IMG/VR virus record: IMGVR_UViG_3300033402_000312
Source: a virus
DNA length: 64,000 bases
Reading direction: 5' to 3' (one strand)
Below, in pieces: positions 2,856 through 41,611 of the stretch. Made by a program: the position numbers and the translations under genes. Within the stretch, counting starts at the first letter, position 1, and each line of letters begins with the position of its first letter. The notes beneath the pieces were generated by a model. That model searched no databases. It was given only the letters and a program-made list of their open reading frames with translations, and was not told the origin of the DNA.

Positions 2856-3353
2856 ATGAGCGGGTTGACATTCGAGAAGTGGTGGGAAGAAAATTACTGG
2901 CGGTTTTGCGGCGAGGTCACGAGCCAGCATGTGAAGATCGCCTGGGATGCTGCGCTTGGCATGCTTCTGGTGGTGGAGGGCGACTACAACGACGCGGACT
3001 ACATTGTCAGCGTTGCGCCTGTCACCGAGGAAAAACTTGAGAAGTTCCTGCCGTTGATCGAAGCCATCAAAAATTTCAAACCCTACACGATAACCTCACG
3101 CGGGTATGCAGGCGAGGGCGAGAAGCCTTTGTCGTGGACTCACAAACACAACTGGCCCTGCGGCGAATACGGCTGCCGCCAAGACTTGGGGGAAAAGCCC
3201 ATCACGGAACTGTACCCCGAAATCGACGCGGGGATTGTCGAGGAGTTCGACCAAGAGTACGTGCCGCACAATGAGGACGGAAACGTCCATACAATCGAGA
3301 AGATTTTCACCGTGAGATTTGATAGACTCATATTTGAGCACGCAGGCAAATGA
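2856..3353 (+). CDS. hypothetical protein
   Basis: 165-aa ORF preceded by CTGTATACT extended -10 element. Confidence 0.5.
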   Translation: MSGLTFEKWWEENYWRFCGEVTSQHVKIAWDAALGMLLVVEGDYNDADYIVSVAPVTEEKLEKFLPLIEAIKNFKPYTITSRGYAGEGEKPLSWTHKHNWPCGEYGCRQDLGEKPITELYPEIDAGIVEEFDQEYVPHNEDGNVHTIEKIFTVRFDRLIFEHAGK

Positions 3354-4003
3354 GTCTCCTTGACCAAGCCATAGAGCTTGCCGTCACCGCCCATGCTGGG
3401 CAAACAGATGAAGATGGCATGCCGCGTGTCATCCACGCTTTGGAAGTGATGTTCGGGGCGAAAAAAGCTATCGAGACTAGCAGAACGTACGAAGGGCATT
3501 CCGCCCAAGAAACCCCGAATTATACCGGCACCGTGGAAGACCTGATGATCGCTGCTGTGCTCCACGATACCGTCGAGGACTCGTTCGTCACGCTACCTCT
3601 CATCGAAGTGCAATTCGGCAAGCATGTCCGCGACATGGTGGACGGTGTCACCCGGCGCGGCTTGGGCAAAGGCGAAACCAAGGAGTTTTACCGCGACTTC
3701 ATTTACCGGGCGAAAACAAACCCCGGCTCTCGCATCATCAAGATCGCTGACCTGATGCACAATTATGGGCGCTCCCATAAGATCAAAAAGGCAAGCTGGC
3801 GGAACAAGCTGATGTTCAAGTACAACGTCGCGCTGTCCGTCTTGAAAGATGCCGACCAGCCGACATGGGAGCAGGCTTCCTCTTCCGTGCAGCTTGACGG
3901 GTCGCATGCCCGCTATTTCATTGCCGACCCAGACGGCAAGAGGATCGAAGTCGCCGAAGAAGAATTCAGACGCTTATATGCAAAGCGGCCGAAGAACCCA
4001 TAG
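3350..4003 (+). CDS. HD-domain (p)ppGpp hydrolase-like protein (RelA/SpoT hydrolase-domain family)
   Basis: motifs HALEV, AAVLHDTVED, FG..V...VDGVTR typical of RelA/SpoT HD hydrolase domain; ATGA overlap with upstream gene. Confidence 0.7.
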   Translation: MSLLDQAIELAVTAHAGQTDEDGMPRVIHALEVMFGAKKAIETSRTYEGHSAQETPNYTGTVEDLMIAAVLHDTVEDSFVTLPLIEVQFGKHVRDMVDGVTRRGLGKGETKEFYRDFIYRAKTNPGSRIIKIADLMHNYGRSHKIKKASWRNKLMFKYNVALSVLKDADQPTWEQASSSVQLDGSHARYFIADPDGKRIEVAEEEFRRLYAKRPKNP

Positions 4004-4071
4004 GGTCGGCTTAATTTCTTTACCAGTCCCCGTTTCGTGCTAGTATTGCACCTAAGTTGCCGGGAGAAGCG

Positions 4072-5649
4072 ATGACTTCACAGGAAGAAAGGCTTCTCAA
4101 CAAAGCCCGCGAGAAGCTTGAGGAGCAGCAGGAACTCCTCAAGCGCCTGACCGCCTCGGCGTACCATCTGGGCGTCGTTGTCGCCGTGTTCAAAGACCGC
4201 GTGGTCGTGGACACGGGGAACCAGCTTTTCGAACTCAACAAAGTCGAATCCTCGCTCGACGTCAAGGTCGGTCAGCCGGTTGACATACACCCCACGACGG
4301 GGCAGATCGTCAAGACCTCTGAATACGTCGCCTTCGGAGCTACCGGGAAAGTCACGGCAATCGACGGCGACCTCATCCAAATCAATACCCCCTACGGTCT
4401 TATCACCACGCGTGATTCAATGGTCGGTGGGGTGAATGTAGGCGACAAGGTCGTGCTGAACAGCACGAACCATGTCATCATGCACAAGCTGCCGGAGACG
4501 TCGCAGTACATCTTCAAAACCCAATCCGTTTTGAACTGGGACGACATTGGGGCGCAGGATGACGCAAAGAAAGAGCTTATCTCCGCGCTGGAAACCCCGT
4601 TCGAACATGAGGCCCTGTACAAGTTCTTCAACAAGCAGCGCATCAAGGGCTGCCTGCTTTGGGGACGCCCCGGCAACGGCAAGACGCTCCTCGGCCGCGC
4701 AGCGGCGGGATCGCTCGCCCGAATACACGGCAAGGATGCAACGGAGTCGGGTTTCATCTACATCAAGGGGCCGGAAATCCTCGACAAGTATGTCGGAGAG
4801 ACCGAGCAGCGGATCAGCGAAGCTTTCGACTTTGGCATAGCGCACTTCAAGAAGCACGGTTACCCGGCAGTGCTGTTCCTCGACGAAGCGGACGCCATCC
4901 TTGTCCGGCGCGGCATGCGTACGACATCCGGCATGGAGCAGACCATTGTGCCGATGTTCAATGCACGCATGGACGGCATCGAGGACAGTGGGGTGTTCGT
5001 GATCCTTGCGACCAACCGCGCCGACATCCTTGACCCGGCTATCGTCCGTCCGGGCCGCATCGACCGCAAGATTCACGTTGCGCCTCCTACCAAGGAAAAC
5101 GCGCCGAGCATCTTCGAGATACACATGCGTAATGTCCCTGTAGCCAAGGGCATGAGCAAGGAACAGCTAATCGCGGCGACTGTGGATTCCCTCTACAGTG
5201 ACAAGTTTCCCCTGTACTACATCGAAACCAAAAAGAATGAGCGCTTGGTATTTGGTCTCGGCAACCTTGCGTCCGGCGCTCTCATCGCTGGGGTTGTGGA
5301 ACGGGCGTCCGCCATCGCCATCGCCCGCGTGATCACCCAGCATGTTGCTGACGGTGCGGATTACAAGGCCGTTAAAAAGCTCGCCGATGACGTCGATGCT
5401 TTAGGGAAAGTTCTCGGGCTGACGCAATCGGATTTCGACAGTGCCCTAGTCGTCATGCACAAAGAGCAGTATGGCATAAACCATTTTGACGAGCTTAGCG
5501 AGTTTGTCGAGATGGGCAAGCTGGACGTGACGTCCATTGAGCAATGCCACACCGGGCAGCGCGTGGAAACAAAGCGCGAGGAGCGCCGTCAGGTGCAGGA
5601 GACAGCGATAGTGATCCCGGTCCCGACTTCCAAGTCGAAGTTGAATTGA
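4072..5649 (+). CDS. proteasomal-type AAA ATPase (PAN/Mpa/ARC-like: coiled coil + OB fold(s) + AAA)
   Basis: N-term coiled coil; OB segment ending VGDKVVLN...HKLPE (PAN/Rpt-like); Walker A GRPGNGKT, Walker B VLFLDEAD, second region of homology (SRH) ATNRADILDPAIVRPGRIDRKI. Confidence 0.75.
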   Translation: MTSQEERLLNKAREKLEEQQELLKRLTASAYHLGVVVAVFKDRVVVDTGNQLFELNKVESSLDVKVGQPVDIHPTTGQIVKTSEYVAFGATGKVTAIDGDLIQINTPYGLITTRDSMVGGVNVGDKVVLNSTNHVIMHKLPETSQYIFKTQSVLNWDDIGAQDDAKKELISALETPFEHEALYKFFNKQRIKGCLLWGRPGNGKTLLGRAAAGSLARIHGKDATESGFIYIKGPEILDKYVGETEQRISEAFDFGIAHFKKHGYPAVLFLDEADAILVRRGMRTTSGMEQTIVPMFNARMDGIEDSGVFVILATNRADILDPAIVRPGRIDRKIHVAPPTKENAPSIFEIHMRNVPVAKGMSKEQLIAATVDSLYSDKFPLYYIETKKNERLVFGLGNLASGALIAGVVERASAIAIARVITQHVADGADYKAVKKLADDVDALGKVLGLTQSDFDSALVVMHKEQYGINHFDELSEFVEMGKLDVTSIEQCHTGQRVETKREERRQVQETAIVIPVPTSKSKLN

Positions 5650-5697
5650 GATGCATGATTTTGCTACCCACATCCGGTACCATGCGGAGCTTGGCTG

Positions 5698-5904
5698 ATG
5701 CCTCAGAGAAGAATTGAAAGACCGCAGGAGAAGAAGCCCAGACCGCAGGACAACACTGGACCTAAGACCGACCTCGAAATCGACATCGGCGAAGTGGATG
5801 ACATCTTGAAGGAGATGGACATCATCGAACACCCCGAGAAGTACACGAAGGAACAGCGCGAGTGTGGCTGCTTCACCCCGTCGAAAGGGGGCGGTTTCCG
5901 TTAA
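5698..5904 (+). CDS. Pup/UBact-like small protein (candidate prokaryotic ubiquitin-like tag)
   Basis: 68 aa, disordered basic N-term, C-terminal EVDDILKEMDIIEH...KGGG resembles Pup ETDDLLDEIDDVLEEN...KGGQ; directly downstream of Mpa-like ATPase. Confidence 0.4.
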   Translation: MPQRRIERPQEKKPRPQDNTGPKTDLEIDIGEVDDILKEMDIIEHPEKYTKEQRECGCFTPSKGGGFR

Positions 5905-6248
5905 TGAGGAAAATTCGTGAAGAACGGTTTGACGGGATCGTCGGCCTTAAGATGCCAAAGATGGGCAGCATCACGCCTAAGAATATCGAAGTGCCGGAAA
6001 TAGGCGATTTGCTCGGCAAGATAAGAGCGGCGGTGTTAGCTCCAAGCCTTACTAGCCTTGACCTTACCGACTTCAAAAACTCATGGAATTATAGGACTTC
6101 CTTTGATTTTGAAACCAAGCCTGAGCAAGGTGGTCGCTGTCGCTACGGATGCGGCTGCCTGCCCTGTCGTTGTGGGGATTGCGGTAACTGTACCGTGGAT
6201 GCACAACGCGAAACTGCCTGGGATGCAGCACAAAGGGGTAAGTTATGA
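5904..6248 (+). CDS. hypothetical Cys-rich protein
   Basis: TAATG stop-start overlap with Pup-like ORF; C-term GGRCRYGCGCLPCRCGDCGNC. Confidence 0.4.
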   Translation: MRKIREERFDGIVGLKMPKMGSITPKNIEVPEIGDLLGKIRAAVLAPSLTSLDLTDFKNSWNYRTSFDFETKPEQGGRCRYGCGCLPCRCGDCGNCTVDAQRETAWDAAQRGKL

Positions 6249-6613
6249 GCGACTGCGTGAGTATCACGCTGTTCCGCGTGATAATGATCGGCGTTGCGAC
6301 CGGGGCGATCAGCCTGTTCATCACCAAGTCCGCCCTGCTCAACCCGTTCCATGCCTGGCTGGAAAAGCAGTCGCCGTTCCTTGAAGAGATGCTTTCCTGC
6401 CCGTGGTGTACTAGCCACTGGGTCGGCGCGTTCTTCCTGCTGGTGTATCAGCCGTGGCTTCTCGACGGCTGGCGTCCGGCGTGGACGTACGCTAGCTGGC
6501 TCAACCTCCTCCTGACCCCCGTGGATTGGCTCGTGACCCTGATGGTGGTAGTCACCGTCGCGGCAATAACGGCACGGGTCATCTATAGCGCCCACAAGCC
6601 GCTTATGGGGTAA
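6245..6613 (+). CDS. DUF1360-like membrane protein
   Basis: hydrophobic helices, SCPWCTSHW motif typical of DUF1360. Confidence 0.5.
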   Translation: MSDCVSITLFRVIMIGVATGAISLFITKSALLNPFHAWLEKQSPFLEEMLSCPWCTSHWVGAFFLLVYQPWLLDGWRPAWTYASWLNLLLTPVDWLVTLMVVVTVAAITARVIYSAHKPLMG

Positions 6614-6620
6614 TAGACTC

Positions 6621-7733
6621 ATGACGCATCCCATCCTTTACAAGAAAACCAGCACCGGGGCGATCCAGTATTGGCTGATCAGCGCCGAAGGCAATCAAAT
6701 CATGACCACCTACGGTCAGGTCGGCACCGATTCGCCCCAAACCACGTTTGACACCATCAAGGAGGGCAAGAACGCCGGGCGGGCCAACGCGACCACCCCC
6801 GAGCAGCAGGCGCAAGCCGAGGCGAAGGCGAAGTGGACAAAGCAGCTTAAGAAAGGCTACGTCAAGACGCAGGCGGAGGCGGAGGCAGGGACGGTTGACG
6901 CGATCATCGAAGGAGGCATCCTGCCGATGCTCGCGCACAAGCATTCCGAGCACGCCAAGAAGATCAAATTCCCGTGCTTTGGGCAGCCGAAGTTCGATGG
7001 CATCCGCTGCACCGCGATCAAGAAGGACGGCGTTGTCTCCCTCTGGTCGCGCACCCGCAAGCCGATCAAGTCCGTGCCGCACATCGCCAGAGCCGTCGAG
7101 ACAATCCCCGGCGACTTCATCCTTGACGGCGAGCTTTACAACCACGACTACCGGCAGGACTTTGACACCATCGTCGAGCTTGTCCGCCCGGACGAGCCGG
7201 TCGAGGGGCACGAGGCAGTGCAGTACCACGTGTATGACACCGCGAATGACCAGCCGTTCAAGGAGCGCAACGACTGGCTGATCGACAAACTCGACAGGTC
7301 ATATCTCTTTGGCATCATCGTCCGCGCCGAGACCCATATCGTGAATTCTGCCGACGAAGTCGAGGCTTTCCATGAGCTTATGCTGACGCACGGCTACGAA
7401 GGCGCGATGCTCCGCAACGCTGACGCCCCGTACGTCAACAGGCGCAGCTACGACCTCCAGAAGGTCAAGAAGTTCGTGGACGCCGAGTTCGAGATCGTGG
7501 GCTTCGAGGAGGGGCGCGGCCGCCTGCAAGGGCACATCGGGAGCTTCGTGTGCAAGACGAAGGACGGCAAGCTGTTCAAGGCGAAGCAGAAGGGCAAGCT
7601 CTCCAAGCTCAAGGAGTACTTTGATGACCACTCACTTTGGCAGGGCAAAAAGCTGACTGTGCAGTACCAAAACCTTACCCCGGATGGCATCCCGCGTTTC
7701 CCAGTCGGCAAGGCGATCCGCGATTACGAATAA
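6621..7733 (+). CDS. lig: ATP-dependent DNA ligase
   Basis: adenylation motif I KFDGIRC (KxDG); size/organisation of phage ATP ligases. Confidence 0.75.
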   Translation: MTHPILYKKTSTGAIQYWLISAEGNQIMTTYGQVGTDSPQTTFDTIKEGKNAGRANATTPEQQAQAEAKAKWTKQLKKGYVKTQAEAEAGTVDAIIEGGILPMLAHKHSEHAKKIKFPCFGQPKFDGIRCTAIKKDGVVSLWSRTRKPIKSVPHIARAVETIPGDFILDGELYNHDYRQDFDTIVELVRPDEPVEGHEAVQYHVYDTANDQPFKERNDWLIDKLDRSYLFGIIVRAETHIVNSADEVEAFHELMLTHGYEGAMLRNADAPYVNRRSYDLQKVKKFVDAEFEIVGFEEGRGRLQGHIGSFVCKTKDGKLFKAKQKGKLSKLKEYFDDHSLWQGKKLTVQYQNLTPDGIPRFPVGKAIRDYE

Positions 7734-7776
7734 ATAAAAACAGAGCCGAAAAGCCAAAATCCGGCATCAAAGGGTT

Positions 7777-8517
7777 ATGGGCGATCCCGCGAAAACCAAG
7801 GTACAGGTGTTTGTTTGGGACGAGCACGAAGAGCCGCAGGAGCTTCACGGCTCCTCCCTTGAAACGGTCTTTGAGGTTGTGCTGGCCGGTTGGCTCAAAG
7901 TCAAAGAATACGGGAAAGTCCGAAGGGTTTACCCGACCGGGGAGCTTGCCATATACTACCGCGCTTTCACCGACGAGCATCGGGGCCGCCAGATCGTCAG
8001 CGGTGTCAGCCTAGCCGAACTGGACGCCGCCTACCAAGAACGGAAAAAGCAGTGCACCCTGAAGGTTTTCACCCCCGCTGAGCTTTACGCCCTAAAGCCT
8101 GTTCGAATAGACTACGATCCCTGGCTCACGGTTAGCGTGCATCTCTCCGAGGATGTCAGCCACTTTGACCTTGACTTCGACGCTGTCGAGAAAACGCAGC
8201 GCGTGGAAATCCGCACTTTAGCTGACCACGACTACGACGGCAGGCGCGTCTGGACTCTCCAGACAGTCTGGTTTGACAACAAGCCCGTGATGGTGGTAAA
8301 CAGTTCTGGAAGGGACGGCGACGAGTACCATGAGCGCTGGATCACGGATGCCCAGCTTTTCGGGGAGCTTGTGACGTTTCTGAGGACATTCACGCCTCAG
8401 CGGGACGTGGACGGGTTCGTGAAGGCCGATGCGAAAATCCCCGGCATGACCGAGTTCTATAACCATACGATTCATGATTACTACGACGTCGAGGCTCAGA
8501 GGCCTAAAAAACCGTAG
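7777..8517 (+). CDS. hypothetical protein
   Basis: 246-aa ORF. Confidence 0.45.
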   Translation: MGDPAKTKVQVFVWDEHEEPQELHGSSLETVFEVVLAGWLKVKEYGKVRRVYPTGELAIYYRAFTDEHRGRQIVSGVSLAELDAAYQERKKQCTLKVFTPAELYALKPVRIDYDPWLTVSVHLSEDVSHFDLDFDAVEKTQRVEIRTLADHDYDGRRVWTLQTVWFDNKPVMVVNSSGRDGDEYHERWITDAQLFGELVTFLRTFTPQRDVDGFVKADAKIPGMTEFYNHTIHDYYDVEAQRPKKP

Positions 8518-8573
8518 AATCTTGCACCGTTTTGCTGTATGATCGAATCTTGCATGATATAGGAGCATACGAC

Positions 8574-9236
8574 ATGTCCATCAAACAACTGATTCACCAA
8601 GCGAAGAGCCTCGTGGTCGAGGACGATGCGCCGGCCCCGCATGCCGCCGCTCCGACGACCTCGTCGCACCCAGCATTCAACTTGTCTCCGGCGTTTTCAA
8701 CCGGGACGGGCGCGGCGGCGGCCCCGGCCCCTGTCGATTCTCCGTTCTCGGTTCCGAGCACGCCCGTTCTCGACGAAAAGGTCTACAAGTCCGTTCTTGC
8801 CAAGACAAACTTCAACACCACTCCGGTTGGCACGACGATCATCAAATACTACGATGCCCTCGAAGGCATGATCGCCGACCAGAGCGCCCGCTTCAAGGCA
8901 GCCATCAAGCAGGCGCAGAAACTCGACAACATCACTCCCGACCAAGTTCTCGGCGTGTTCGATCAGCTTTCAGCGGCGCTGGACAAAGACGCGGCAAGCT
9001 TTCAGAAAGTCGCAGACAGCGTGCAAGCGACCCAAATCACAGCCCGTCAGACCAAGATCGCCAGCCTCCAGCAGCAAGTTGAGGCTTTCAACAACCAGAT
9101 CAATCAGCTTCAGATGGAGTTGGCATCGGAAACAGCTAACCATGCCAACGCGGTGACGCAGTACGGCTTGGCGCAACAGCGCCGGGCGCAAGAGATCGCG
9201 GCACAGAAAGCGCAAGTCGCCACCCTGCTTCGATGA
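8574..9236 (+). CDS. hypothetical coiled-coil protein
   Basis: AGGAG RBS before ATG 8574; Ala/Pro-rich linker then Q-rich coiled coil. Confidence 0.45.
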   Translation: MSIKQLIHQAKSLVVEDDAPAPHAAAPTTSSHPAFNLSPAFSTGTGAAAAPAPVDSPFSVPSTPVLDEKVYKSVLAKTNFNTTPVGTTIIKYYDALEGMIADQSARFKAAIKQAQKLDNITPDQVLGVFDQLSAALDKDAASFQKVADSVQATQITARQTKIASLQQQVEAFNNQINQLQMELASETANHANAVTQYGLAQQRRAQEIAAQKAQVATLLR

Positions 9237-10477: not shown

Positions 10478-12298
10478 ATGGCACACATCAAACCCCAAGC
10501 CAAGATTGCATTGGTGGTGATCCTCGTGGTGGGCGTGGTCTTCGGACTCCGCATCGCTGGCGAGCACGGGTATATTCCAGTTCCCGGCTATCTGCATTCT
10601 CTGGTTCCTCAGAAAGCTAACATTCCCGACGTGCGCGACGCCGAAGTCTCCAACGTCACCCCGGTCGCGCTTCCGACCAGTTCGCCAGCTACTGTGCAAA
10701 GCACTTTGATTCGCGGCGAAATCTGGGAGTGGAACGCCCAGATGGGCTTGCTCTTTGCAAATGGCGGCCCAACCACAACCCAAGGCTCGCTGATGGCGAA
10801 GCGCAACGTCAACTTGATGCTTATCCGTCAGGACGACACCAACAAGATGCAGGAAGACCTGATCGCCTGCGCGAATGAACTCCATGGCGGCGCTACCCAG
10901 TGCTCAAACGGGGCGAACTTCGTTGTGATCATGGGCGACGGCTCGGGCCAGTTCGCGGCTGCGGTCAACCCCCAGCTTGCGAAGCTTGGACCGCAGTACC
11001 TCGTGAAGGTCATTGCCGCGACCGGCTATTCCCGTGGCGAGGACGCCTTCATGGCACCGCCAGAGGTCAAGAGGTCCGCTTCCAACGCCAAGGGCATCCT
11101 CGTGGAGGGCGTGCTCCGCGATGGCGACTGGAACATTGCCATGAAGTGGGCTGCCGACAACAACATCCCGAACAACCCCGACGAGCACACATACGACTCG
11201 GACGCCATCAACTGGGTCAACGCCCCCGACTACAACACTGCCGCATCCGACTACGTCGCTGGCAAGTGCGAAGACCGCAAGGTTGTCAAGGACGGACACC
11301 CAACCGGGGACACCAAGCACGTCTGCGTTAACGCGGTCGTGACGTGGACACCAGGCGACGTCACTGCCGTCACGCAAAAGGGCGGATTGGTGAAGGTCGT
11401 GTCATCCAAGCAGTATCGCTCGCAAATGCCAGCCGTCATCCTCGGCCCGGAGAAGTTTTTCGCCGACAACCGCGACGAGATCACCAACATGGTCGCAGCA
11501 ATGTTCGAAGGTGGCGATCAAGTGAAGGCGTTCGACCAGTCATTGCACGCTGCTGCGACCATCTCAACGAAGGTCTACAACGACGAGGGCGACAGTGTCA
11601 GCCACGGCGGGGAGTTCTGGTACAAATATTTCAAAGGCGTGGACTACCGCGACTCTGAGGGGAACACCGTACTTCTTGGCGGCTCGGCGGTCAACAACCT
11701 CGACGACAACTTGATCCTGTTCGGTCTCAAGCCGGGCACGAACGACAACTTCCGTTCGACCTACACTGTCTTCGCGAACATCGACGTGCAGCAGTATCCC
11801 ACGCTGTTCAAGGAGACCCCGATCCCGGACGTCAAGACAGTCGAAGACAAGTCGTACATCACCGGAGCGCAAGCTATACTCTCCGGCGAAGGCGACGTCG
11901 GCTCCGAGGCGCAGACTGTGGACTACACGTCGCAGGCTTCCGGCGAGACTGTCTCGAACCGTTCTTACAACATCCAGTTCCAAACCGGCAGCAGCGTCCT
12001 GACTCCCGCTGGCGAAGACCAACTCCGCCAGTTGAAGGATGGTTTGGCGATCACCGGGCTGTTCATCAGGGTGGACGGATATACCGACAACACCGGCTCC
12101 GACACGGTCAACATCCCGCTGTCGCAAGCCCGCGCCGAGTCGGTGAGGAACTTCCTCCAGCGCAACTATCCGGGAACGTTCCCGAACAGGCGCTTCCAGA
12201 CAGCGGGGCACGGCTCGCAGAACCCCATCGCCAGCAACGCGACGGCTGAAGGCAAAGCCCAGAACCGCAGGGTCGAGATAACCCTTGTGGGTCAGTGA
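10478..12298 (+). CDS. ABC transporter substrate-binding protein (NitT/TauT-like) fused to C-terminal OmpA-like peptidoglycan-binding domain
   Basis: N-term TM anchor; middle resembles SsuA/TauA-type substrate-binding protein; C-term OmpA motif GYTDNTGSDTVNIPLSQARAESV...NRRVEI; AGGAGGAGAGAAA RBS. Confidence 0.65.
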   Translation: MAHIKPQAKIALVVILVVGVVFGLRIAGEHGYIPVPGYLHSLVPQKANIPDVRDAEVSNVTPVALPTSSPATVQSTLIRGEIWEWNAQMGLLFANGGPTTTQGSLMAKRNVNLMLIRQDDTNKMQEDLIACANELHGGATQCSNGANFVVIMGDGSGQFAAAVNPQLAKLGPQYLVKVIAATGYSRGEDAFMAPPEVKRSASNAKGILVEGVLRDGDWNIAMKWAADNNIPNNPDEHTYDSDAINWVNAPDYNTAASDYVAGKCEDRKVVKDGHPTGDTKHVCVNAVVTWTPGDVTAVTQKGGLVKVVSSKQYRSQMPAVILGPEKFFADNRDEITNMVAAMFEGGDQVKAFDQSLHAAATISTKVYNDEGDSVSHGGEFWYKYFKGVDYRDSEGNTVLLGGSAVNNLDDNLILFGLKPGTNDNFRSTYTVFANIDVQQYPTLFKETPIPDVKTVEDKSYITGAQAILSGEGDVGSEAQTVDYTSQASGETVSNRSYNIQFQTGSSVLTPAGEDQLRQLKDGLAITGLFIRVDGYTDNTGSDTVNIPLSQARAESVRNFLQRNYPGTFPNRRFQTAGHGSQNPIASNATAEGKAQNRRVEITLVGQ

Positions 12299-12317
12299 TT
12301 AACCCGGCTAAGGGGAA

Positions 12318-12349
12318 GGGGTCGGGATGAAAATCCCGACCCTTTTTGT
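12318..12349 (+). terminator. rho-independent terminator after the substrate-binding/OmpA fusion gene
   Basis: gggtcggga-tgaaaa-tcccgaccc then ttttt. Confidence 0.7.
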
Positions 12350-12587
12350 TTGTGGCTGCATCAAACTGGTAGGAGCGTACGGTGACCAAAAGGGAAGCAA
12401 GGCGTTGCGGTTCGCTCTGCACCGGATGCTACAAGCGCGGAAAGCGGGCAGGGCAGCTATGCTTGAAGGTCAGCAAGTTTTTGGTGCAGATCATGCGCTA
12501 CGACAGATTCGCAAGGCGGGTCAGGAGCGGTGAGGGGCGCTGCGGGGTTCACACACCACGTCACCTTAGGACTGAAAGCCGGGCTAT

Positions 12588-12899
12588 ATGAGCCAGACTT
12601 ACGACAAGAAAACAGTGCTCGCGGCTGCGGACAAGACGGTGCAGGCTGTGCTTGCCGAGCGGAAGATACTGCTTGCGAAGTGGGATTCCAAGAACATCGC
12701 CGTTAGGTTTCTCCTCGGTATGATCGGTATAGTGCGCCCCGACTACCACGGCATATCACGGCAAAAGATCGCCGAGCGCGTTTCGTTCAAGGCGGCGTTC
12801 TGTATAGAGGATGCTACCCATCTCACCGACGACGAGATTGACGCCATCAAACATTGGTGGCTTGTCGAGGAGACTCCGAAGGCGTGCTGGCATGAATGA
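12588..12899 (+). CDS. hypothetical protein
   Basis: 103-aa ORF. Confidence 0.4.
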   Translation: MSQTYDKKTVLAAADKTVQAVLAERKILLAKWDSKNIAVRFLLGMIGIVRPDYHGISRQKIAERVSFKAAFCIEDATHLTDDEIDAIKHWWLVEETPKACWHE

Positions 12900-13677
12900 A
12901 ATCCTAGCGGCGTTCACGCCCAATAGGGCGGTGTCCAAGTCCACGATCAAGCTCATAGTCGGCGTGCAGGTCGTCGTCTTCTTTTTGCTGTGGATGTTCT
13001 CGCCGTTCGTGCTCCTGCCAACCGTCAAGGAAGTCTGGACGGCATTCGTGGAGCAGTGGTACCAAGGGCTGCCGGGCGAGCTTCTCATCAGTTTCTATGC
13101 GAACCTTCAAGCTATCGCCATCTCGTGCGTCATCTCGCTCGGGCTGGCTTACTTGACCGTGCTGGAAGGCTTCCGCCCCGTCGTCGTCTTCCTGTCCAAG
13201 CTGCGCTTTCTGTCGATGATGGGCTTGAGCTTCTTCTTCACTGTGGCGACATCGACCGCCCACCAGCTTAAGATTTCCCTCCTTGTGTTCTCGATCTCCG
13301 TGTTCTTTGTGACCGGGATGGCTGACGTCATCGAGTCTATCCCGAAGGAACAGTACGACCTCGCCCGGACGCTTCGCATGGGGCCGTGGCGCACGGTCTG
13401 GGAAGTCGTGGTGCTGGGGCAGATCGACAAGAGCTTCGACGTGCTGCGCCAGAACGCGGCAATCGGCTGGATGATGCTTAGCATGATCGAGGCAATGGTG
13501 CGAAGCGAGGGCGGCATCGGGGCGATGCTGAGCACCGCCAACAAGCACTTCTATCTCTCCGCCGTATTTGCTATTCAGATAGTAATCTTGTTGACAGGTT
13601 TATTCCAAGACTACATGATCGGCGCATCCAAACGCTTATTCTGCCCCTACGCAGCATTGACATCGGAGCGCAAATGA
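12892..13677 (+). CDS. ABC transporter permease (NitT/TauT family-like)
   Basis: multi-TM, follows substrate-binding gene; ATGAATGA overlap with upstream ORF. Confidence 0.65.
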   Translation: MNEILAAFTPNRAVSKSTIKLIVGVQVVVFFLLWMFSPFVLLPTVKEVWTAFVEQWYQGLPGELLISFYANLQAIAISCVISLGLAYLTVLEGFRPVVVFLSKLRFLSMMGLSFFFTVATSTAHQLKISLLVFSISVFFVTGMADVIESIPKEQYDLARTLRMGPWRTVWEVVVLGQIDKSFDVLRQNAAIGWMMLSMIEAMVRSEGGIGAMLSTANKHFYLSAVFAIQIVILLTGLFQDYMIGASKRLFCPYAALTSERK

Positions 13678-14030
13678 TGAACATCAAAGTCGGGGACACG
13701 GTAACGCGCCTGCTTGCCGGAACCATCCCGATGGAGCTTAAGGTCACCGAGGTCACGGATGACCGCATCGTCTGCGGCGGCTGGGAATTCGACAAAGCGA
13801 CCGGAGTCGAGATCGACGAAGAACTCGGCTGGGGGCCGCCGCCGAAGATGACCGGGAGCTTCATCAAGTCTGGTGTCATGACACCGGCAGAGAAGTTGCT
13901 ATACCAAACGTGTGCTACGTGCTCTGCCTTAAGGCTTTACTATGAAGAGACACGGAGATGCACCTGCGCAGAAGGGTTGAACCCCAACTGCCCGGCTCAC
14001 GGAGACACCAGAAAAAATAACTTGCCTTGA
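13674..14030 (+). CDS. hypothetical protein
   Basis: ATGA overlap; 118 aa. Confidence 0.4.
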   Translation: MMNIKVGDTVTRLLAGTIPMELKVTEVTDDRIVCGGWEFDKATGVEIDEELGWGPPPKMTGSFIKSGVMTPAEKLLYQTCATCSALRLYYEETRRCTCAEGLNPNCPAHGDTRKNNLP

Positions 14031-14064
14031 CTGACACTACGACTGACTGGAAGGAAAAGAAATA

Positions 14065-15003
14065 ATGCCCGCTCTTTACCCATACACCTACGGCGACACA
14101 CTTCTCAAAATAGACAACGTTTGCCTTTCCGCTTCCGCTGACGGCCTGCGCCTGCTGGAAAAGGAGGGGCCGGGCAGCCGTTCCATCCTGAAAAACGTCA
14201 CCGCCGAAGTGAAAAAAATCAACCGCGACGATTACGTGAACGGGCAGATTGTCGGGTTCATCGGTCCATCAGGCATCGGAAAGACCCAGCTATTCCGCAT
14301 TATCGCAGGGCTGAGCACCCCGACGTCCGGCGCTGTCTACGTCAACCGCGAGAGCACCCCGGTTCGGGCTGGCGAAGTGGGCGTCGTCGCCCAGAACTAT
14401 CCCCAGTTCGCGCACCGTACGGTGATGGGCAACCTCCAGCTTGCCGCAAGGCGCAGGGAAAAGGACCCCAAGGTCGCGCACGACAAGATCATGGACCTCC
14501 TGAACGAGTTCGGGCTGGCGGACAAGGCGCACCTCTACCCGGCGCAGCTTTCGGGCGGTCAACGCCAGCGCATCGCTATCATCCAGCAAATCCTCGGGGC
14601 GCAGCATTACTTGCTTATGGACGAGCCGTTCTCCGGTCTGGACATCATCGTCGAGGGCAAGGCTACCGACCTGATCATGAAGGTCGCCAACCGCGACGGG
14701 CTGAACACGGTCATCGTGGTCACGCACGACATCTCGGCGGCCGCCTCGATAGCCGACCACATCTGGGCGCTGGGGCGGCAGTTTGACGTGAACGGTACGC
14801 CGACGCCAGGCCTTCAGATTCCCAGCGAGCAGCTTGCGACCAACGGCGGGATATACCAGCCCTTGGATGGCGCGACTATCGTGAAAACGTACGACTTGAT
14901 CGAGCGGGGCTTGTGCTGGACGCAGATGGGCGACCACGCCATGGTGCAGCCGAATATGGTAGAATTCATCCGTGAGGTGAAGAGTGACTTTTACCATTTC
15001 TGA
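14065..15003 (+). CDS. ABC transporter ATP-binding protein (SsuB/TauB-like)
   Basis: Walker A GPSGIGKT, signature LSGGQRQR, Walker B LLMDEPFSGLD, H-loop VTHD. Confidence 0.8.
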   Translation: MPALYPYTYGDTLLKIDNVCLSASADGLRLLEKEGPGSRSILKNVTAEVKKINRDDYVNGQIVGFIGPSGIGKTQLFRIIAGLSTPTSGAVYVNRESTPVRAGEVGVVAQNYPQFAHRTVMGNLQLAARRREKDPKVAHDKIMDLLNEFGLADKAHLYPAQLSGGQRQRIAIIQQILGAQHYLLMDEPFSGLDIIVEGKATDLIMKVANRDGLNTVIVVTHDISAAASIADHIWALGRQFDVNGTPTPGLQIPSEQLATNGGIYQPLDGATIVKTYDLIERGLCWTQMGDHAMVQPNMVEFIREVKSDFYHF

Positions 15004-15430
15004 AAGATGGCGTTTTTTTCAGCGGGGGCTTGTGTCCTTGTTGGTCATCCCCTTTTTGTGCGCCGTAGCTTGCGACCAGCCAACGCAGCCATCACAGCCA
15101 TCCGTAAGGAACAGAGTCCCCACGGTTGCCCAAACAGATGCGCCTCCGGCTGCACCGCTCTCCACGGACGTCCTGAAGAAGGAAGAGCCTCCGTATTACG
15201 GCTCGACATACTGGGAAGAGCTTCTGACATCGGTCTACTACTATCCGGCTCAGGGTGGCGACAACGGCGACTTGACGGTGCCCTCCACGCACCTGAAGTT
15301 CAATCACCGGGACGACGCCCTCTGGCTGTGCGGCGACCAGCGCAAAATCTTCGAGCCGGGGCGCACGTACAGGCTGCTGGTGACTTTCGAGCCTAATCAG
15401 CCCTGCGTGACGAACTGGAAAATAGAATGA
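14984..15430 (+). CDS. hypothetical exported protein
   Basis: GTG start, N-terminal hydrophobic segment LVSLLVIPFLCAVAC. Confidence 0.4.
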   Translation: MTFTISERWRFFQRGLVSLLVIPFLCAVACDQPTQPSQPSVRNRVPTVAQTDAPPAAPLSTDVLKKEEPPYYGSTYWEELLTSVYYYPAQGGDNGDLTVPSTHLKFNHRDDALWLCGDQRKIFEPGRTYRLLVTFEPNQPCVTNWKIE

Positions 15431-15589
15431 GAAGCGGAAGCATGGATAAAGTCTTGGATTTTTTCGGCAAGCACCCGCTTTTCACAATGCTCGTTTTCGT
15501 GGTGCTATTCTTCGGCGGCTGCGAAGCCGCTGTCAAGCTTCACATAGTTTCGTCTTCGACGAAACTCATGCCATATTAGGAGAACTCCT

Positions 15590-15781
15590 ATGGGGTTTAT
15601 GACCGAGCCGCACGATATACAGCGTGTTAACGCGGTTGCGAAGATCGTGGAGAGCCTCAAGTCCGCGTACCCGGACGTCAAGAAGCTCCACGTTGACATC
15701 CAGTTCGAGTTCGTGCAGACGGAGTTCTGGGGCGACGAGTCGGGTCTTTGCCCTGTGGTGAAGATCGACGTCGAGAGGTAA
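15590..15781 (+). CDS. hypothetical protein
   Basis: TAGGAGAA RBS; 63 aa. Confidence 0.4.
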   Translation: MGFMTEPHDIQRVNAVAKIVESLKSAYPDVKKLHVDIQFEFVQTEFWGDESGLCPVVKIDVER

Positions 15782-15794
15782 ACTGTGAGGCGGC

Positions 15795-16511
15795 ATGGCA
15801 GAAACGGCGTCCGAAGACAAGGTGAAGATTCTCGCGATCAGCGCCTCCACGGTGGCAGACGGCCACGTGGAGCAGATGCTTTCCATCTTTTGCACGCAAG
15901 CTTTCTCCCTTGGCGCTGACGTCGAAATCGTCCGCCTCGTGGAGATGCTTCCCCCTCCCGTGTCCGGCAGGCTGGAAGGCTGGGAACCAGACCCATTCTG
16001 GGAGAAGAAGATCGGCGAGGCCGATGCCGTGGTCATCGCGACGCCCACCCACTGGTTTGCGCCTCCGGCAATCCTGAAGGCTTGGATTGACAACCTGACG
16101 CCGCTTGTCATGAAGAGCGGCAGCGACCTCGTGGGGAAGTTCGCGGGCATCATGATCTACGCCCCCGAGGGGGGCGGGGCTATGCTGGCTGGCTGGTTCG
16201 CGCTCGTGCTCAACAACATCGGTTTCACTATCCCGGCCGACGGCGTCATCTGGCAGGAGGGCCCGTATAAGAAAGCGCAGAACACATGGGTGTACAAGGC
16301 GATACCCGCGCTGGCGGGCAATATCATCGCGCTGGTCATCGCGCTGCGTAGCGTCCCCGCCGACGCATCGGTTTTCCTGACTGAGCGCGTCGCCCGGTAC
16401 CGGGCGCGGGGCGGCAAGAAGAAGAGCGGGCTGTCCGCCCTGATGGAGTTGACCGAGGAGCTTCCGCTAGTGGTGGAGGGCGAGGAGCCGCAGGCACCGC
16501 CTAAGGGGTGA
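15795..16511 (+). CDS. NAD(P)H-dependent FMN reductase-like flavoprotein (flavodoxin-like fold)
   Basis: KILAISAS...ADAVVIATPTHWFAPPAILKAWIDNL matches FMN_red pattern. Confidence 0.55.
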   Translation: MAETASEDKVKILAISASTVADGHVEQMLSIFCTQAFSLGADVEIVRLVEMLPPPVSGRLEGWEPDPFWEKKIGEADAVVIATPTHWFAPPAILKAWIDNLTPLVMKSGSDLVGKFAGIMIYAPEGGGAMLAGWFALVLNNIGFTIPADGVIWQEGPYKKAQNTWVYKAIPALAGNIIALVIALRSVPADASVFLTERVARYRARGGKKKSGLSALMELTEELPLVVEGEEPQAPPKG

Positions 16512-20013: not shown

Positions 20014-20107
20014 GGAGAGATGCCAGAGAGGCTGATCGGGGCGGTTTGCTAAACCGTTGTGGGAGCTAAAACTTCCACCGGGGGTTCGAATCCCCCTCTC
20101 TCCGCCA
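20014..20107 (+). tRNA. tRNA-Ser(GCU), type II, CCA encoded
   Basis: acceptor ggagaga/tctctcc, T-arm ggggg-ttcgaat-ccccc, anticodon loop ttGCTaa, long variable arm. Confidence 0.75.
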
Positions 20108-20108
20108 C

Positions 20109-20200
20109 GGAAGGGTTGGTACATTGGCAGGTCCGGCTGTCTCGAAAACAGTTACGGGGCGCAAGCTCCGTTGCCCGTTCGACTCGGGTCCCTTCCTCCA
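20109..20200 (+). tRNA. tRNA-Ser(CGA), type II, CCA encoded
   Basis: acceptor ggaaggg/cccttcc, T-arm gcccg-ttcgact-cgggt, loop ctCGAaa. Confidence 0.65.
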
Positions 20201-20345
20201 AGTTTAGATCGCAGCGGTGTTGGATACAGTTACTTCGGATAAACACAACCGGCGCGAGCCGGGCGTGCAAGTCTGGGTTCGAATCCCAGCGACCGGGCGC
20301 AAGCCCGGTGTCAACTGTGCCGCTTGTTCCCTGCGATTCAGTTTT

Positions 20346-20435
20346 GGAGAGTTGGCCGAGTGGACGATGGCGCTCGCTTGGAAAGCGAGTATCCTCGAAA
20401 GGGGGTCGCGAGTTCGAATCCCGCACTCTCCGCCA
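20346..20435 (+). tRNA. tRNA-Ser(GGA), type II, CCA encoded
   Basis: acceptor ggagagt/actctcc, loop ttGGAaa, disc G. Confidence 0.7.
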
Positions 20436-20436
20436 G

Positions 20437-20528
20437 GGCGAGGTTGGTACATGGGCAGGTCCGGCGCTCCCGAAAAGCGTTACGGGGCTGACGCTCCGTT
20501 GCAGGTTCAACTCCTGTCCTCGCCGCCA
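20437..20528 (+). tRNA. type II tRNA, Ser(CGA)-like with C33
   Basis: acceptor ggcgagg/cctcgcc, T-arm gcagg-ttcaact-cctgt, loop ccCGAaa (C at position 33). Confidence 0.5.
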
Positions 20529-20533
20529 AATTT

Positions 20534-20619
20534 GGAAGGTACTGCCGAATGGTTGGCAACTAGCCTTGAAAGCTAGGGCGTCCGAAAGGACGGGCGTTCG
20601 ATTCGTCTATCTTCCGCCA
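20534..20619 (+). tRNA. tRNA-Ser(UGA), type II, CCA encoded
   Basis: acceptor ggaaggt/atcttcc, D-stem tgcc/ggca, anticodon stem ctagc/gctag loop ctTGAaa. Confidence 0.7.
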
Positions 20620-20646
20620 AATTTCAGGTATTAGCCGTAGTAATTC

Positions 20647-20735
20647 GCGGGAGCAGCCCGATTGGCCGGAGGCGGCGGACTTAAAATCCGTTGGGAGCAA
20701 TCCCTTTGTGAGTTCGACTCTCACCTCCCGCACCA
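20647..20735 (+). tRNA. tRNA-Leu(UAA), type II, CCA encoded
   Basis: acceptor gcgggag/ctcccgc, disc A, loop ctTAAaa, T-arm gtgag-ttcgact-ctcac. Confidence 0.7.
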
Positions 20736-20740
20736 AATTC

Positions 20741-20829
20741 GCTGGTGTCCGTTGGCACGGGGAACCGTTTTATAAACGGTTGCCCTAGATCGGGGCTTCC
20801 ATAGGGTTCGATTCCCTACACCAGCACCA
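20741..20829 (+). tRNA. type II tRNA with anticodon UAU (unusual; Ile(UAU)-like or noncanonical)
   Basis: acceptor gctggtg/caccagc, disc A, anticodon stem accgt/acggt loop ttTATaa, 21-nt variable region, T-arm taggg-ttcgatt-cccta. Confidence 0.5.
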
Positions 20830-24758: not shown

Positions 24759-25154
24759 ATGCAAATCGCTGACGGCTTTGCTTATTTGCCACTGCGAACT
24801 GATCGGCAGGAAACTCCTCGGGCAGCGCGGGCAGTAATACAAACGATGTGCCAAACCCGCGTGGTGCATGTCAGGCACGAAAAATTCGACATATACATCG
24901 GACGTGCGTTCGCAGAGTTTCACGAGAGTATCTGGGCAAACCCGTTCCGCATCGAGATCGGATGCGGTCGCGATTGCGTCTGCGACAAGTATGAGGCGTA
25001 CGTGCGGGGCAGGCCCGACTTGATGGCGCGGCTGGGCGAGCTTCGCGGCAAGGTGCTAGGCTGCTGGTGCAAAGGCAAAAACGGCAAAGGCAAGCGTTGC
25101 CACGGCGATACGCTAGTCAAGCTGGTGCGGGAGGTTTTTGGTGAGGATAGTTAG
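24759..25154 (+). CDS. DUF4326-like protein
   Basis: KFDIYIGR...SIWANPF...GKVLGCWC...CHGD pattern; true start may be ATG 24846. Confidence 0.45.
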   Translation: MQIADGFAYLPLRTDRQETPRAARAVIQTMCQTRVVHVRHEKFDIYIGRAFAEFHESIWANPFRIEIGCGRDCVCDKYEAYVRGRPDLMARLGELRGKVLGCWCKGKNGKGKRCHGDTLVKLVREVFGEDS

Positions 25155-39814: not shown

Positions 39815-39890
39815 AGGGGATTGGTCTAGCGGCTACGATGCGCGTCTCCAAAACGCTGCGACGGGGGTTCGAGTCCCTCATCCCCTGCCA
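39815..39890 (+). tRNA. tRNA-Trp(CCA), CCA encoded
   Basis: acceptor aggggat/atcccct, loop ctCCAaa, T-arm gggggttcgagtccctc. Confidence 0.7.
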
Positions 39891-39912
39891 AGTTTTTGAA
39901 GGGAAGGAAGTT

Positions 39913-40543
39913 ATGGAACTGAGGTCAGGGGCTTCTCAAGCGCGAGGTACCCGCATCCTGCGGGGGGAGACGGCTGCCCGGAGGCGTCTTCATCTCGTCT
40001 AGCCTTGCGCAGAGGGCGACGGAAGCCGGGTACGAGGAGTTCGTCCTTCCGTCGCTTGAGCTTGCCGCCATGTACGCGGAGAAGGCGGGGGATGAGGTTC
40101 TGGGGCAGATGTACACGTTCCCGGACAAGAAGGGCAGGCTGCTGTGCCTGCGACCGGAGGGGACGGCGACGTGCCAGGTGCTCGCCGACACGGCGCTGAA
40201 GTCGGAGCGGGACGTGAGGCTCTGGTACCTGGCGACCTGCTGGCGCTACGAGCGGCCGCAAGCCGGGCGCTACCGGGAGTTCTTGCAGTTCGGCGTGGAG
40301 GTCCTGAACCCGCGCCGGGGCGTGCGGGACGAGCTTGTGGCGCTGGCCGAAGGCATGGTCGGAATGTTCACCGACCGCTATGAGGTGAGCAGGGCTGTGA
40401 AGCGCGGGCTGGCGTACTACGTCGAGGACGGCTTCGAGATAAGCTGCCCGCAGCTTGGCGCTCAGAAGCAGGTCTGCGGCGGCGGGTCGTACAAGCAGGG
40501 ATGCGGCTTCGCGCTCGGCGTGGATCGGCTGATGCTGGTTTGA
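39913..40543 (+). pseudogene. hisS-like (histidyl-tRNA synthetase class II core) remnant, frameshifted and internally shortened
   Basis: N-term fragment MELRS..RGTRILRGETAA stops at 40002; second frame carries motif 1 LRPEGTA, motif 2 CWRYERPQAGRYREFLQFGVE, motif 3 CGGGSYKQGCGFALGVDRL; insertion and anticodon-binding domains absent. Confidence 0.45.
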
Positions 40544-40570
40544 GTTTCATGCCGTAGTGCATGACACTAC

Positions 40571-40644
40571 GGTGGGCGTAGTTCAGTTGGGAGAACGCCC
40601 GGCTGTGAACCGGGAGGTCGCGGGTTCGAACCCCGCCGCTCACC
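40571..40644 (+). tRNA. tRNA-His(GUG) with genomically encoded G-1, no encoded CCA
   Basis: G-1 pairs with discriminator C73; acceptor gtgggcg/cgctcac; loop ctGTGaa; T-arm gcggg-ttcgaac-cccgc. Confidence 0.75.
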
Positions 40645-40689
40645 CTTTCGTGACTTCCTGAGTATTAAGTAGAGTGCTCAGGAAGGTTC

Positions 40690-41517
40690 ATGATGCTTTA
40701 CACCGTGTACAAGACGGTGAATTTGACGAACGGCAAGTACTACTTCGGCGTCCATAAAACGGACGACCCGGATGACGACTACCTCGGTTCTGGGGTATAC
40801 ATCAAGCGAGCCGTTGCAAAGTACGGGGAACAGAACTTCCGCAAGGAAGTGTTGTTCATTTATCTTGATGCGGAGTCGGCGTTTAAGAAAGAAGACGAGT
40901 TAATCCAGTGTTATCGAGGCAGGGACCCGTTGTGCATGAATCTAAAGAATGGAGGGAGAGGTGGCTATGACTGGATCAATAAAAACGGGTTAAATGGTGC
41001 GAAAGTTGCGCATCTCCCAAATGTAGAGCAACAGCGGCGACGGACATTCGGTAAAAGACTTAAGACCGACGAAAATTTTCGACGTCAAGTTGCCGAACGA
41101 GCAAAGCACGCGGCGCAATTTGTAAAAAATGAGAGCCGCTTGGAATCATTAAAGCAGGCGACAATCGCAGCAGCGAACGCAAATACGGGCAGAAAACGCT
41201 CCTCGGAATTCAAGCATAAGATTTCTGCCGCGCAGCGAGGGGGTAGGTGGGTACACCAAGGAAGAAATAAACGTCGAGTTGTCCAAGAAGATTTGCCAAG
41301 ATTTTTGAAAGAGGGCTGGCTGTTTGGACAAAAAGACAAGCCGTCGCTTAAGACCCGAAAATTAAGTAAAGCTCAAACAGCTTTCGCGGGGACACGTTGG
41401 TGCTGGGGGCATAAAGATTTTTTACCTCTTAACGCTTTTGATGGCGCAAATCGGTTGTGTAGGCTTTGCAGGAAAAAGCGGCGAGTTTTACGCCGCCAAG
41501 AGTTGGGACATTGGTAA
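40690..41517 (+). CDS. GIY-YIG homing endonuclease
   Basis: N-term YTVYKTVNLTNGKYYFGVHKT...YLGSG GIY-YIG motif; lower GC than flanks; sits between tRNA genes. Confidence 0.7.
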   Translation: MMLYTVYKTVNLTNGKYYFGVHKTDDPDDDYLGSGVYIKRAVAKYGEQNFRKEVLFIYLDAESAFKKEDELIQCYRGRDPLCMNLKNGGRGGYDWINKNGLNGAKVAHLPNVEQQRRRTFGKRLKTDENFRRQVAERAKHAAQFVKNESRLESLKQATIAAANANTGRKRSSEFKHKISAAQRGGRWVHQGRNKRRVVQEDLPRFLKEGWLFGQKDKPSLKTRKLSKAQTAFAGTRWCWGHKDFLPLNAFDGANRLCRLCRKKRRVLRRQELGHW

Positions 41518-41527
41518 TTTGATATAG

Positions 41528-41604: not shown

Positions 41605-41611
41605 AGAGATT

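Follow-up and report, generated by a model that had tools for sequence, protein, structure and literature searches.

An Mpa/ARC-type unfoldase with cysteine-tailed partners resembling the Mpa-binding part of Pup and UBact in a large phage genome

Mpa-type unfoldases and their small disordered protein tags are known from bacterial proteasome systems, with Pup as the tag in Actinobacteria and UBact in a few Gram-negative phyla. A search of the literature returned no phage Mpa-like ATPase described together with Pup/UBact-like partners. Here we analyze a stretch of viral DNA of 64,000 nucleotides (IMG/VR record IMGVR_UViG_3300033402_000312; hereafter the window), which belongs to a very large phage genome. 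It contains a four-gene cassette that appears to be so far undescribed: a gene for an Mpa/ARC-type AAA+ unfoldase (hereafter the ATPase), a gene for a disordered protein of 68 amino acids (aa), a cysteine-rich open reading frame (ORF) and a gene for a small DUF1360-like membrane protein (table 1). The first three of these had been proposed in an original prediction made from the nucleotide letters, and they are present as described save for the length of the Cys-rich ORF. We put the case, tentatively and at a little under an even chance for the model as a whole, that the cassette is a phage-borne, ligase-free and proteasome-free derivative of the bacterial Mpa-Pup/UBact recognition pair.

The ATPase carries GRPGNGKT at residues 198-205 (Walker A), LFLDEAD at residues 268-274 (Walker B) and ATNRADILDPAIVRPGRIDRK at residues 313-333 (second region of homology). 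Its pore loop, K239-Y-V-G242, falls in invariant columns of our ATPase alignment (A2) and is of the K-Ar-Hb-G type; the pore loop of Mpa reads K340-F-V-G343 (PMC8755798). Pfam recognizes the AAA domain only (E = 1.9e-28), and its OB models PF17758 and PF16450 do not match the phage ATPase, though a bacterial Mpa matches both. The best NCBIfam model is TIGR03689 (pup_AAA), with 241.3 bits for residues 8-424 on profile positions 23-462 of 512, a score that lies below the curated equivalog cut-off of 504.75. An AlphaFold 2 (AF2) model built on 41 homologs has a predicted local distance difference test score (pLDDT) of 83, and is composed of an N-terminal helix (residues 3-27), a first beta domain at residues 32-82, a second one at residues 88-140, and the AAA module. 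The stretch VGDKVVLN...HKLPE (residues 123-142) lies at the end of the second beta domain, and both beta domains align to the double-OB region of Mpa, in the fold search as well as in TIGR03689. When the model was compared with the PDB by Foldseek, the 30 best matches were all Mycobacterium tuberculosis Mpa, over approximately 500 columns and with E values down to 5e-33; eukaryotic Rpt subunits rank after the Mpa chains. A Cdc48 or FtsH identity was considered and rejected, given that their higher PDB scores come only from the sum of two AAA domains. Per domain, Mpa (5kwa) yields the best single-stretch PDB score and the widest coverage (ATPase residues 110-421).

Taken by TIGR03689, the AF2 model and the 30 best fold matches, the ATPase is Mpa/ARC-like, not Cdc48- or PAN-like, and folds and works like Mpa/ARC. 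The label "PAN/Mpa-like" of the original prediction is therefore correct as to Mpa and not as to PAN. The OB region, the AAA motifs and a helix for the coiled coil that it listed are all found, the N-domain modeling as a helix plus two beta domains with Mpa, not Cdc48, as the best fold match. In the N-terminal helix A12, Q19, L23 and L26 are nearly invariant in the 41 homologs and the heptad positions are conserved; the coiled coil itself is a prediction, and by analogy with Mpa (PMC8755798) the helix is presumed to take part in partner docking. The C-terminus ends ...VIPVPTSKSKLN, with SKSKLN as its last residues and pLDDT values below 50 at residues 497-511. Within the close clade the ATPase tails are conserved, as ..V[IA][VI]P[VMI]P..K[LV]N or ..[YFW]DA, and the GQYL/HbYX motif (penultimate Tyr, 20S docking) is not present in the C-termini of the ATPase or of its relatives. 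The conserved tail could be a docking tail for another partner. The ATPase is not an Mpa ortholog by three tests, namely the docking tail, the TIGR03689 cut-off and the gene neighborhood.

The 68-aa ORF downstream has 55 homologs of 50-72 aa with 60-100% identity (alignment A1). Its conserved homologs and its constant place beside the ATPase gene identify it as a real gene, not a chance ORF. In all related loci that extend as far as the ATPase gene, the 68-aa gene lies 3' of it, with a stop/start overlap in some. It is found beside the ATPase even in relatives with no more than 33-80% ATPase identity, and the order from ATPase to partner is retained across ATPases of 33-100% identity. The protein begins with a basic leader (residues 1-29), followed by a putative docking motif, IGEVDDILKEMDII (residues 30-43), the sequence HPEKY, a CGC motif (residues 56-58) and the tail TPSKGGGFR. 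Invariant in A1 are G31, D34, E39, D41, I42, H45, P46, E47, Y49, Q53, C56, C58, P61 and R68. The helix EVDDILKEMDII, which had been taken as C-terminal, is central (residues 32-43). Nor does the comparison of the KGGG tail with the KGGQ of Pup stand: the alignment marks this tail as a lineage-specific feature whose likeness to Pup is not meaningful, because its GG varies in A1, where the terminal Arg is the only invariant residue of the tail, and because distant relatives have their C-terminus at or directly past the CxC motif. The window protein amounts to CGCF plus a nine-residue extension, TPSKGGGFR. Modeled alone by AF2 (pLDDT 62) it is predicted to be disordered, with a short helix at the motif (residues 33-39) and no folded cargo domain.

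To delimit the family, loci were gathered from relatives of the small protein, from distant ATPase relatives and from an alignment-based scan of IMG/VR (57 viral loci); an IMG/VR scan with a single ATPase sequence as query gave no match, though the alignment-based scan did yield loci. In a typical locus the ATPase gene is followed by an ORF of approximately 59-107 aa ending in or near CxC or CC, and then by a membrane protein with CP[WY]C-x-SHW. Family members share a basic leader, the motif P-x-[VI]-D-[DE]-[VIL]-L-x-x-[LMIV], a charged linker and a Cys motif, the docking motif starting at residue 26-40 in the phage proteins and at residue 34 in Pup. The C-terminal Cys motif takes several forms (CTCW, CGCF, CCCC, CGC, CGCWGN, CGCFGG and others), and a CxC/CC motif at the C-terminus is found in 28 of 55 neighbors downstream of the ATPase, compared with 3.1% of background ORFs. 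A hidden Markov model (HMM) of the family, built on an unsupervised alignment of 27 diverse members, detects one ORF (two in locus L018) in 32 of the 56 Mpa-like ATPase loci, always just downstream of the ATPase; most of these matches are training sequences, while 8 are not. No further match was obtained among the 5,045 six-frame ORFs of the 56 loci, and in the window the 68-aa ORF is the only match among 687 ORFs. Some relatives (L015/L018, 5415-5821) have two tandem Cys-tail partners of 66 and 71 aa, ending in CTCW and CGCF. Others carry an extra, unrelated 73-aa ORF between ATPase and partner (L008, 7783-8004), and in L008 a second AAA gene of 297 aa lies downstream.

The Cys-rich ORF adds a second protein of the same kind. 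The TAATG overlap reported for it is confirmed, with the TAA of the 68-aa ORF at 5902-5904 and the ATG of the Cys-rich ORF at 5904-5906, but the encoded protein has 114 and not 115 aa. Leader and docking motif (ITPKNIEVPEIGDLLGKI) are shared with the 68-aa protein, with VPEIGDLLGKI at residues 30-40, and there is a cysteine cluster at C79-C96 (CRYGCGCLPCRCGDCGNC) of the form C-x3-C-x-C-x2-C-x-C-x2-C-x2-C. Homologs occur in L012 (43% identity) and L011 (32%), and weaker ones in L008, L014, L017, L019 and L020. The ORF was passed over by gene callers in identical contigs and called in L011 and L012. A chance ORF is ruled out by these homologs and by the profile match to the small family (hhalign, 88%, E = 3e-6, centered on the motif), and on the strength of the shared leader and motif we consider it a paralog of the 68-aa protein. 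In the window the docking motif is present in these two proteins only. Some relatives are without the Cys-rich gene, and there the small gene abuts the membrane-protein gene. In the window, the stop of the Cys-rich ORF and the start of the DUF1360-like gene (6245-6613) share 4 nucleotides. A promoter/terminator scan of 3300-7800 gave no signal clearly above background, a result compatible with one operon.

Profile comparisons with the bacterial tags used a Pup alignment drawn from the protein database and UBact sequences from a scan of species genomes. The family HMM scores real Pup with 19-23 bits over Pup residues 2-50 (E ~3e-5 at Z=5,767), and none of 4,600 composition-matched Pup shuffles exceeds 12.9 bits. 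Real UBact reaches up to 17 bits, with none of 4,800 composition-matched shuffles reaching 13. Since the real sequences outscore all composition-matched shuffles, the leader and central helix of the small proteins, their N-terminal two-thirds, are at the level of sequence profiles more similar to the segment of Pup and UBact that binds Mpa than composition would explain. Against the 5,767 ORFs of 80 bacterial loci, the same HMM retrieves first the family members located beside the ATPase on phage-like contigs from metagenome-assembled genomes (MAGs), next an ORF in L075 (E = 0.0017) and then four UBact (E = 0.0025-0.007). An HMM of UBact run on the 5,045 phage-locus ORFs gives a single match, the Cys-rich paralog in L012 (E = 0.011). 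In hhalign, A1 places IGEVDDILKEMDII on TEETDDLLDEIDDV of Pup with a score of 23.0 and a probability of 34%; this score was reached by none of 300 column shuffles of A1, the highest being 19.2. A broad family alignment matches Pup with a probability of 68% over 43 columns that span the N-terminal leader and the helix. The probability for the phage family versus UBact is 24%, and scores are 22-23 against each of Pup and UBact. For scale, UBact versus Pup scores 15.1, with a probability of 1.9%. In Pup, the matched segment comprises the residues that attach to the Mpa coiled coil and are threaded into its pore (PMC8755798). The small protein had been proposed to be Pup-like, and the profiles point this way for its leader and central helix but not for the features of a conjugatable tag; likewise, its conservation beside the ATPase is borne out, while a match to PF05639 or PF20513 is not.

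The phage family has nothing that corresponds to the ligase-binding and ligated part of Pup. A C-terminal GGQ/E or RTGQ/E is found in none of its members, and the window protein ends GGGFR. Pfam searches of the submitted window ORFs of at least 100 aa revealed no Pup-ligase or proteasome family, and tblastn with a bacterial Pup ligase and PrcB/PrcA returned only noise in the window and in 730 kb of phage loci, so that the reported absence of PafA/Dop and 20S subunits from the window holds for these searches. In the complete 462-kb phage LR756500.1, tblastn with the Pup ligase and 20S beta, those two queries only, found no homolog. A ligase/deamidase of the Pup-ligase family (PF03136) was not detected in the window, in the related phage loci or in LR756500.1. 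Among 50,697 phage records, one has a ligase homolog and none a detectable 20S beta homolog. The conjugation end, the ligase and the 20S proteasome are absent from the cassette. A phage that hijacks or mimics host pupylation, as originally suggested, is unlikely in that form, with no detectable 20S beta in the phage records and an ATPase devoid of GQYL.

The fourth gene extends the cassette beyond what had been predicted: together with the paralogy of the Cys-rich ORF, the finding that a DUF1360-like protein is, by comparison of the loci, the most constant partner of the ATPase is new. The gene product at 6245-6613 matches PF07098 (DUF1360) with E = 4e-4 and 20.8 bits, just under the cut-off of 21; the match covers 24 residues around CPWC, and relatives are likewise weak DUF1360 matches; an HMM derived from the loci recognizes it with E = 4e-37. 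Of the 56 loci, 33 have a DUF1360-like gene downstream of the ATPase, without exception on its strand, and apart from the ATPase this is the only gene common to all 31 module loci. Neither a peptidase nor a modifying enzyme is conserved nearby in these 31 loci. Across 28 members C52 and C55 are invariant, P53 is conserved at 96% and S57-H58-W59 at 86%, the window motif being C52-P-W-C55. The protein has hydrophobic segments at residues 3-28 and 87-116, and the charge distribution would place CPWC at the cytoplasmic face of the membrane. We found no function for DUF1360 in the literature. The published phage LR756500.1 has the ATPase, a Cys peptide and DUF1360 in the same order, unannotated. 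Contigs with the cassette range from approximately 13 kb to more than 500 kb, apparently from genomes of approximately 55 kb upwards. Close relatives of the phage ATPase are also encoded on "MAG" contigs labeled as Bacteroidales (224-612 kb; four of 558-612 kb), Saccharibacteria and Gammaproteobacteria, and the full cassette is present on those with the latter two labels. These contigs look like binned phage genomes.

Table 1. Coordinates of the cassette genes and of the ATPase regions in the window
Feature	Position	Strand	Basis
Mpa/ARC-type AAA+ unfoldase, 525 aa	4072..5649	+	Pfam, TIGR03689, AF2, Foldseek
ATPase N-terminal helix, residues 3-27	4078..4152	+	DSSP; presumed coiled-coil arm and partner docking site
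Two tandem beta (OB-like) domains, residues 32-82 and 88-140	4165..4491	+	AF2 strands
AAA core (Walker A, pore loop, Walker B, second region of homology)	4663..5070	+	Sequence, invariant A2 columns
ATPase C-terminal tail, low-confidence, disordered in model	5560..5646	+	AF2 pLDDT
Intrinsically disordered partner protein, 68 aa	5698..5904	+	55 homologs, alignment A1
Cys-rich paralog of the 68-aa protein, 114 aa	5904..6248	+	TAATG overlap, homologs, hhalign
DUF1360-like small membrane protein, 122 aa	6245..6613	+	Borderline PF07098; locus-derived HMM

How a ligase-free and proteasome-free recognition pair might operate can be envisaged as follows. The ATPase would be a hexameric Mpa/ARC-type unfoldase with the two small proteins as its dedicated partners, and the DUF1360-like membrane protein with its invariant CPxC would be the most constant fourth member of the cassette. 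We infer that each partner docks physically, laying its short acidic amphipathic helix on the N-terminal coiled-coil arm of the ATPase, and that its basic disordered leader of approximately 30 residues is offered to the pore for threading, as Pup is with Mpa. The cysteines of the partners, in a CxC/CC tail or a C-x3-C-x-C-x2-C... cluster, would replace the C-terminal Gln or Glu that the ligase joins in Pup and UBact, and might hold a cargo or an anchor by metal coordination or a disulfide. Their likeliest counterpart would be the CPxC of the DUF1360 protein encoded alongside, which would lie on the inner side of the membrane. With leader, helix, linker and C-terminal attachment point in this order, an attached cargo would be placed where the substrate of Pup would be. 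As to biological purpose, the motor may be recruited to, or pull on, the membrane protein or another cysteine-bound target, without a proteasome.

Several observations weigh against this model. The helix of the ATPase, at approximately 25 residues, has half the length of that of Mpa. The similarity to Pup and UBact spans only some 14-43 columns, and the hhalign probabilities are modest (24-68%). The column-shuffle control was noisy on the broad, gappy family alignment (standard deviation 27), with 10 of 200 shuffles at or above the observed score; this null being unstable, it was replaced by the composition-matched sequence shuffles scored with the HMM. Searches made blindly did not recover the tags: the A1 profile run against the PDB (E up to 10) matched no Pup chain and only peroxiredoxins by chance, and Pfam returned no family at all, PF05639 and PF20513 included, for the window protein (E up to 0.1) or for 26 family members (E up to 10), a real bacterial UBact scoring E = 2.5e-22 with PF20513. 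Against 1.84 billion representative sequences, the A1 profile found two clear members of its own family, the distant P0179 (E = 9.5e-4) and two weak matches in long proteins, with no link to Pup or UBact. Since the likeness is invisible in such searches, it might also have arisen by convergence of two acidic amphipathic helices. Furthermore, of the 51 phage ATPases that share the N-domain profile, 18 have no partner and no DUF1360 gene within 4 kb. With about a third of the phage Mpa-like loci in this state, the motor can evidently work in other contexts too. The N-domain profile was accordingly dropped as a predictor of the partner, as its presence does not predict that of the partner. Finally, the proposed link between the partner cysteines and the DUF1360 protein draws only on their co-occurrence.

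Other explanations of the small proteins have to be weighed against the same evidence. They might deliver no cargo and act as pseudo-substrates or gatekeepers that time the phage ATPase, or block a host Mpa-type ATPase and with it proteasomal degradation. The leader-plus-helix anatomy, as in Pup and UBact, would suit this role, as would the lack of a folded cargo domain and the tight coupling of the partner genes to the ATPase gene, a sign of matched expression. We nevertheless regard it as unlikely: a pure decoy would have no use for the invariant C-terminal Cys motif or for the constant DUF1360 neighbor, and the partner is always encoded together with an ATPase of its own. The module is moreover found on contigs binned with Saccharibacteria and Bacteroidales, although binning is weak evidence, and we know of no Pup/UBact proteasome in either group. 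A further scenario, for which we see a rather small chance, is a third, ligase-independent form of Pup/UBact-like targeting, in which the tag would be attached via its C-terminal Cys (by a metal bridge, a disulfide or other thiol chemistry) and its targets, the dedicated CPxC membrane protein first among them, handed to a phage Mpa-type motor that would operate with no proteasome.

The CxC/CC tails and the Cys cluster are typical of metal sites and, with the invariant CPxC of the membrane protein and the failure of blind database searches to link the family to Pup or UBact, they are also what would be expected of metal-binding or redox peptides, or of modified-peptide precursors, that act with DUF1360. 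The helix would then be convergent and the ATPase would merely share the operon. Such an origin fits poorly with an ATPase-partner order kept across 33-100% ATPase identity and with a leader and helix that match Pup in order and spacing, above all composition-matched shuffles; no modifying enzyme is conserved nearby either, and we judge this explanation distinctly doubtful. Very improbable, in our estimate, is that the small protein is a true conjugated tag, ligated to target lysines by a host ligase or an unrecognized phage one, perhaps after C-terminal processing, with degradation by a proteasome to follow. Its N-terminal half is indeed Pup/UBact-like, and one distant member ends ...CGCWGE and another ...CGCWGN, but the family has neither GGQ/E nor RTGQ/E ends and no match to PF05639 or PF20513. 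The lack of a Pup ligase and 20S in the window, in the 730 kb of phage loci and in LR756500.1 speaks against conjugation as well, as do the single ligase homolog and the missing 20S beta in the 50,697 phage records and the ATPase C-terminus without GQYL.

The remainder of the window is that of a large phage. The assigned protein genes and all 22 tRNA genes are on the + strand, and many ORFs match no family. The proteins of the window recur on metagenome contigs of 447-491 kb, and one contig with exactly this locus measures 894,233 bp. The latter is probably a concatemer assembly, because it is about twice the length of the 447-kb contigs. By blastn, window positions 3000-9000 have no DNA-level match among the 50,697 phage records. 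The tRNA genes form two arrays (20014-20829 and 39815-44629), with five tRNA-Ser and one tRNA-Ile(tat); a histidyl-tRNA-synthetase-like fragment (40070-40543) directly precedes tRNA-His (40572-40645), and a Thg1-like gene is present in relatives, upstream of the window region. A protein of 810 aa (30843-33275, +) has the domains MVP_shoulder (E = 4e-25) and Vault_3 (E = 7e-10) of major vault protein, which are unusual in a phage. A Ku homolog (60319-61428, +; E = 1.3e-27) and an ATP-dependent DNA ligase (6621-7733, +) possibly form an end-joining pair; in some relatives the ligase position is occupied by an NAD-dependent ligase instead. Genes for a 606-aa OmpA-domain protein, an ABC-transporter permease and ATPase and an FMN reductase stand in a row at 10478-16511 (+), a block kept in relatives. 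Also in the window are an RlaP-type nucleotidyltransferase (33350-34183, +; E = 1e-16), a DUF4326 protein (24759-25154, +; E = 2e-17) and HNH and endonuclease VII genes.

If correct, the proposed model would describe a recognition pair widely spread among phages, stripped of ligase and proteasome, with cysteine motifs in place of the conjugation end and a membrane protein as an added component. It would offer a natural experiment on which half of Pup and UBact serves recognition and which ligation, and would give DUF1360 a function-linked context. A docking pair as compact as an arm of approximately 25 residues and a helix of approximately 14 might be reusable for targeted unfolding. The analysis also corrects the automatic annotation of these phage genes as "proteasome-associated ATPase", a label that misleads because no proteasome is in sight.

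The described systems can finally be set beside the cassette. The "proteasome-associated ATPase" of the Brevundimonas phages Polewnik and Strzyga has an AAA module approximately 31% identical to the window ATPase, covering only query residues 141-478; it differs in its N-terminus, and its gene has no Cys-tail partner or DUF1360 gene downstream. In the Mpa + UBact (PF20513) system, bacterial Mpa homologs from Verrucomicrobiota, Latescibacterota, Gemmatimonadota and Poribacteria share 32-36% identity with the phage ATPase over a stretch that begins near residues 1-10 and ends near residues 420-465, and the Pro-rich leader and P-[ND]-[VT]-[DKR]-[DE]-L-[LM]-[KRE]-[RK]-M of UBact align with the phage family and the Cys-rich paralog. 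In the bacterial loci the gene order is mpa, Pup-ligase, UBact, prcB and prcA, whereas the last four functions are not in the phage cassette, which adds DUF1360 and whose small proteins end in Cys motifs rather than RYRQR[TS]G[EQ]. In comparison with actinobacterial Mpa/ARC + Pup (TIGR03689, PF05639), the phage cassette has no Dop/PafA and no 20S, its ATPase has no GQYL and a helix of approximately half the length, and its partner has neither the GGQ/E end nor the C-terminal ligase-binding helices of Pup. Yet the two agree in the helix, double OB, AAA module with a K-Ar-Hb-G loop and overall fold of the ATPase, and a resemblance is seen in a small, probably disordered partner with a helix motif that starts approximately 30 residues from its N-terminus and reads xVDDILKEMD in the phage and ETDDLLDEID in Pup.

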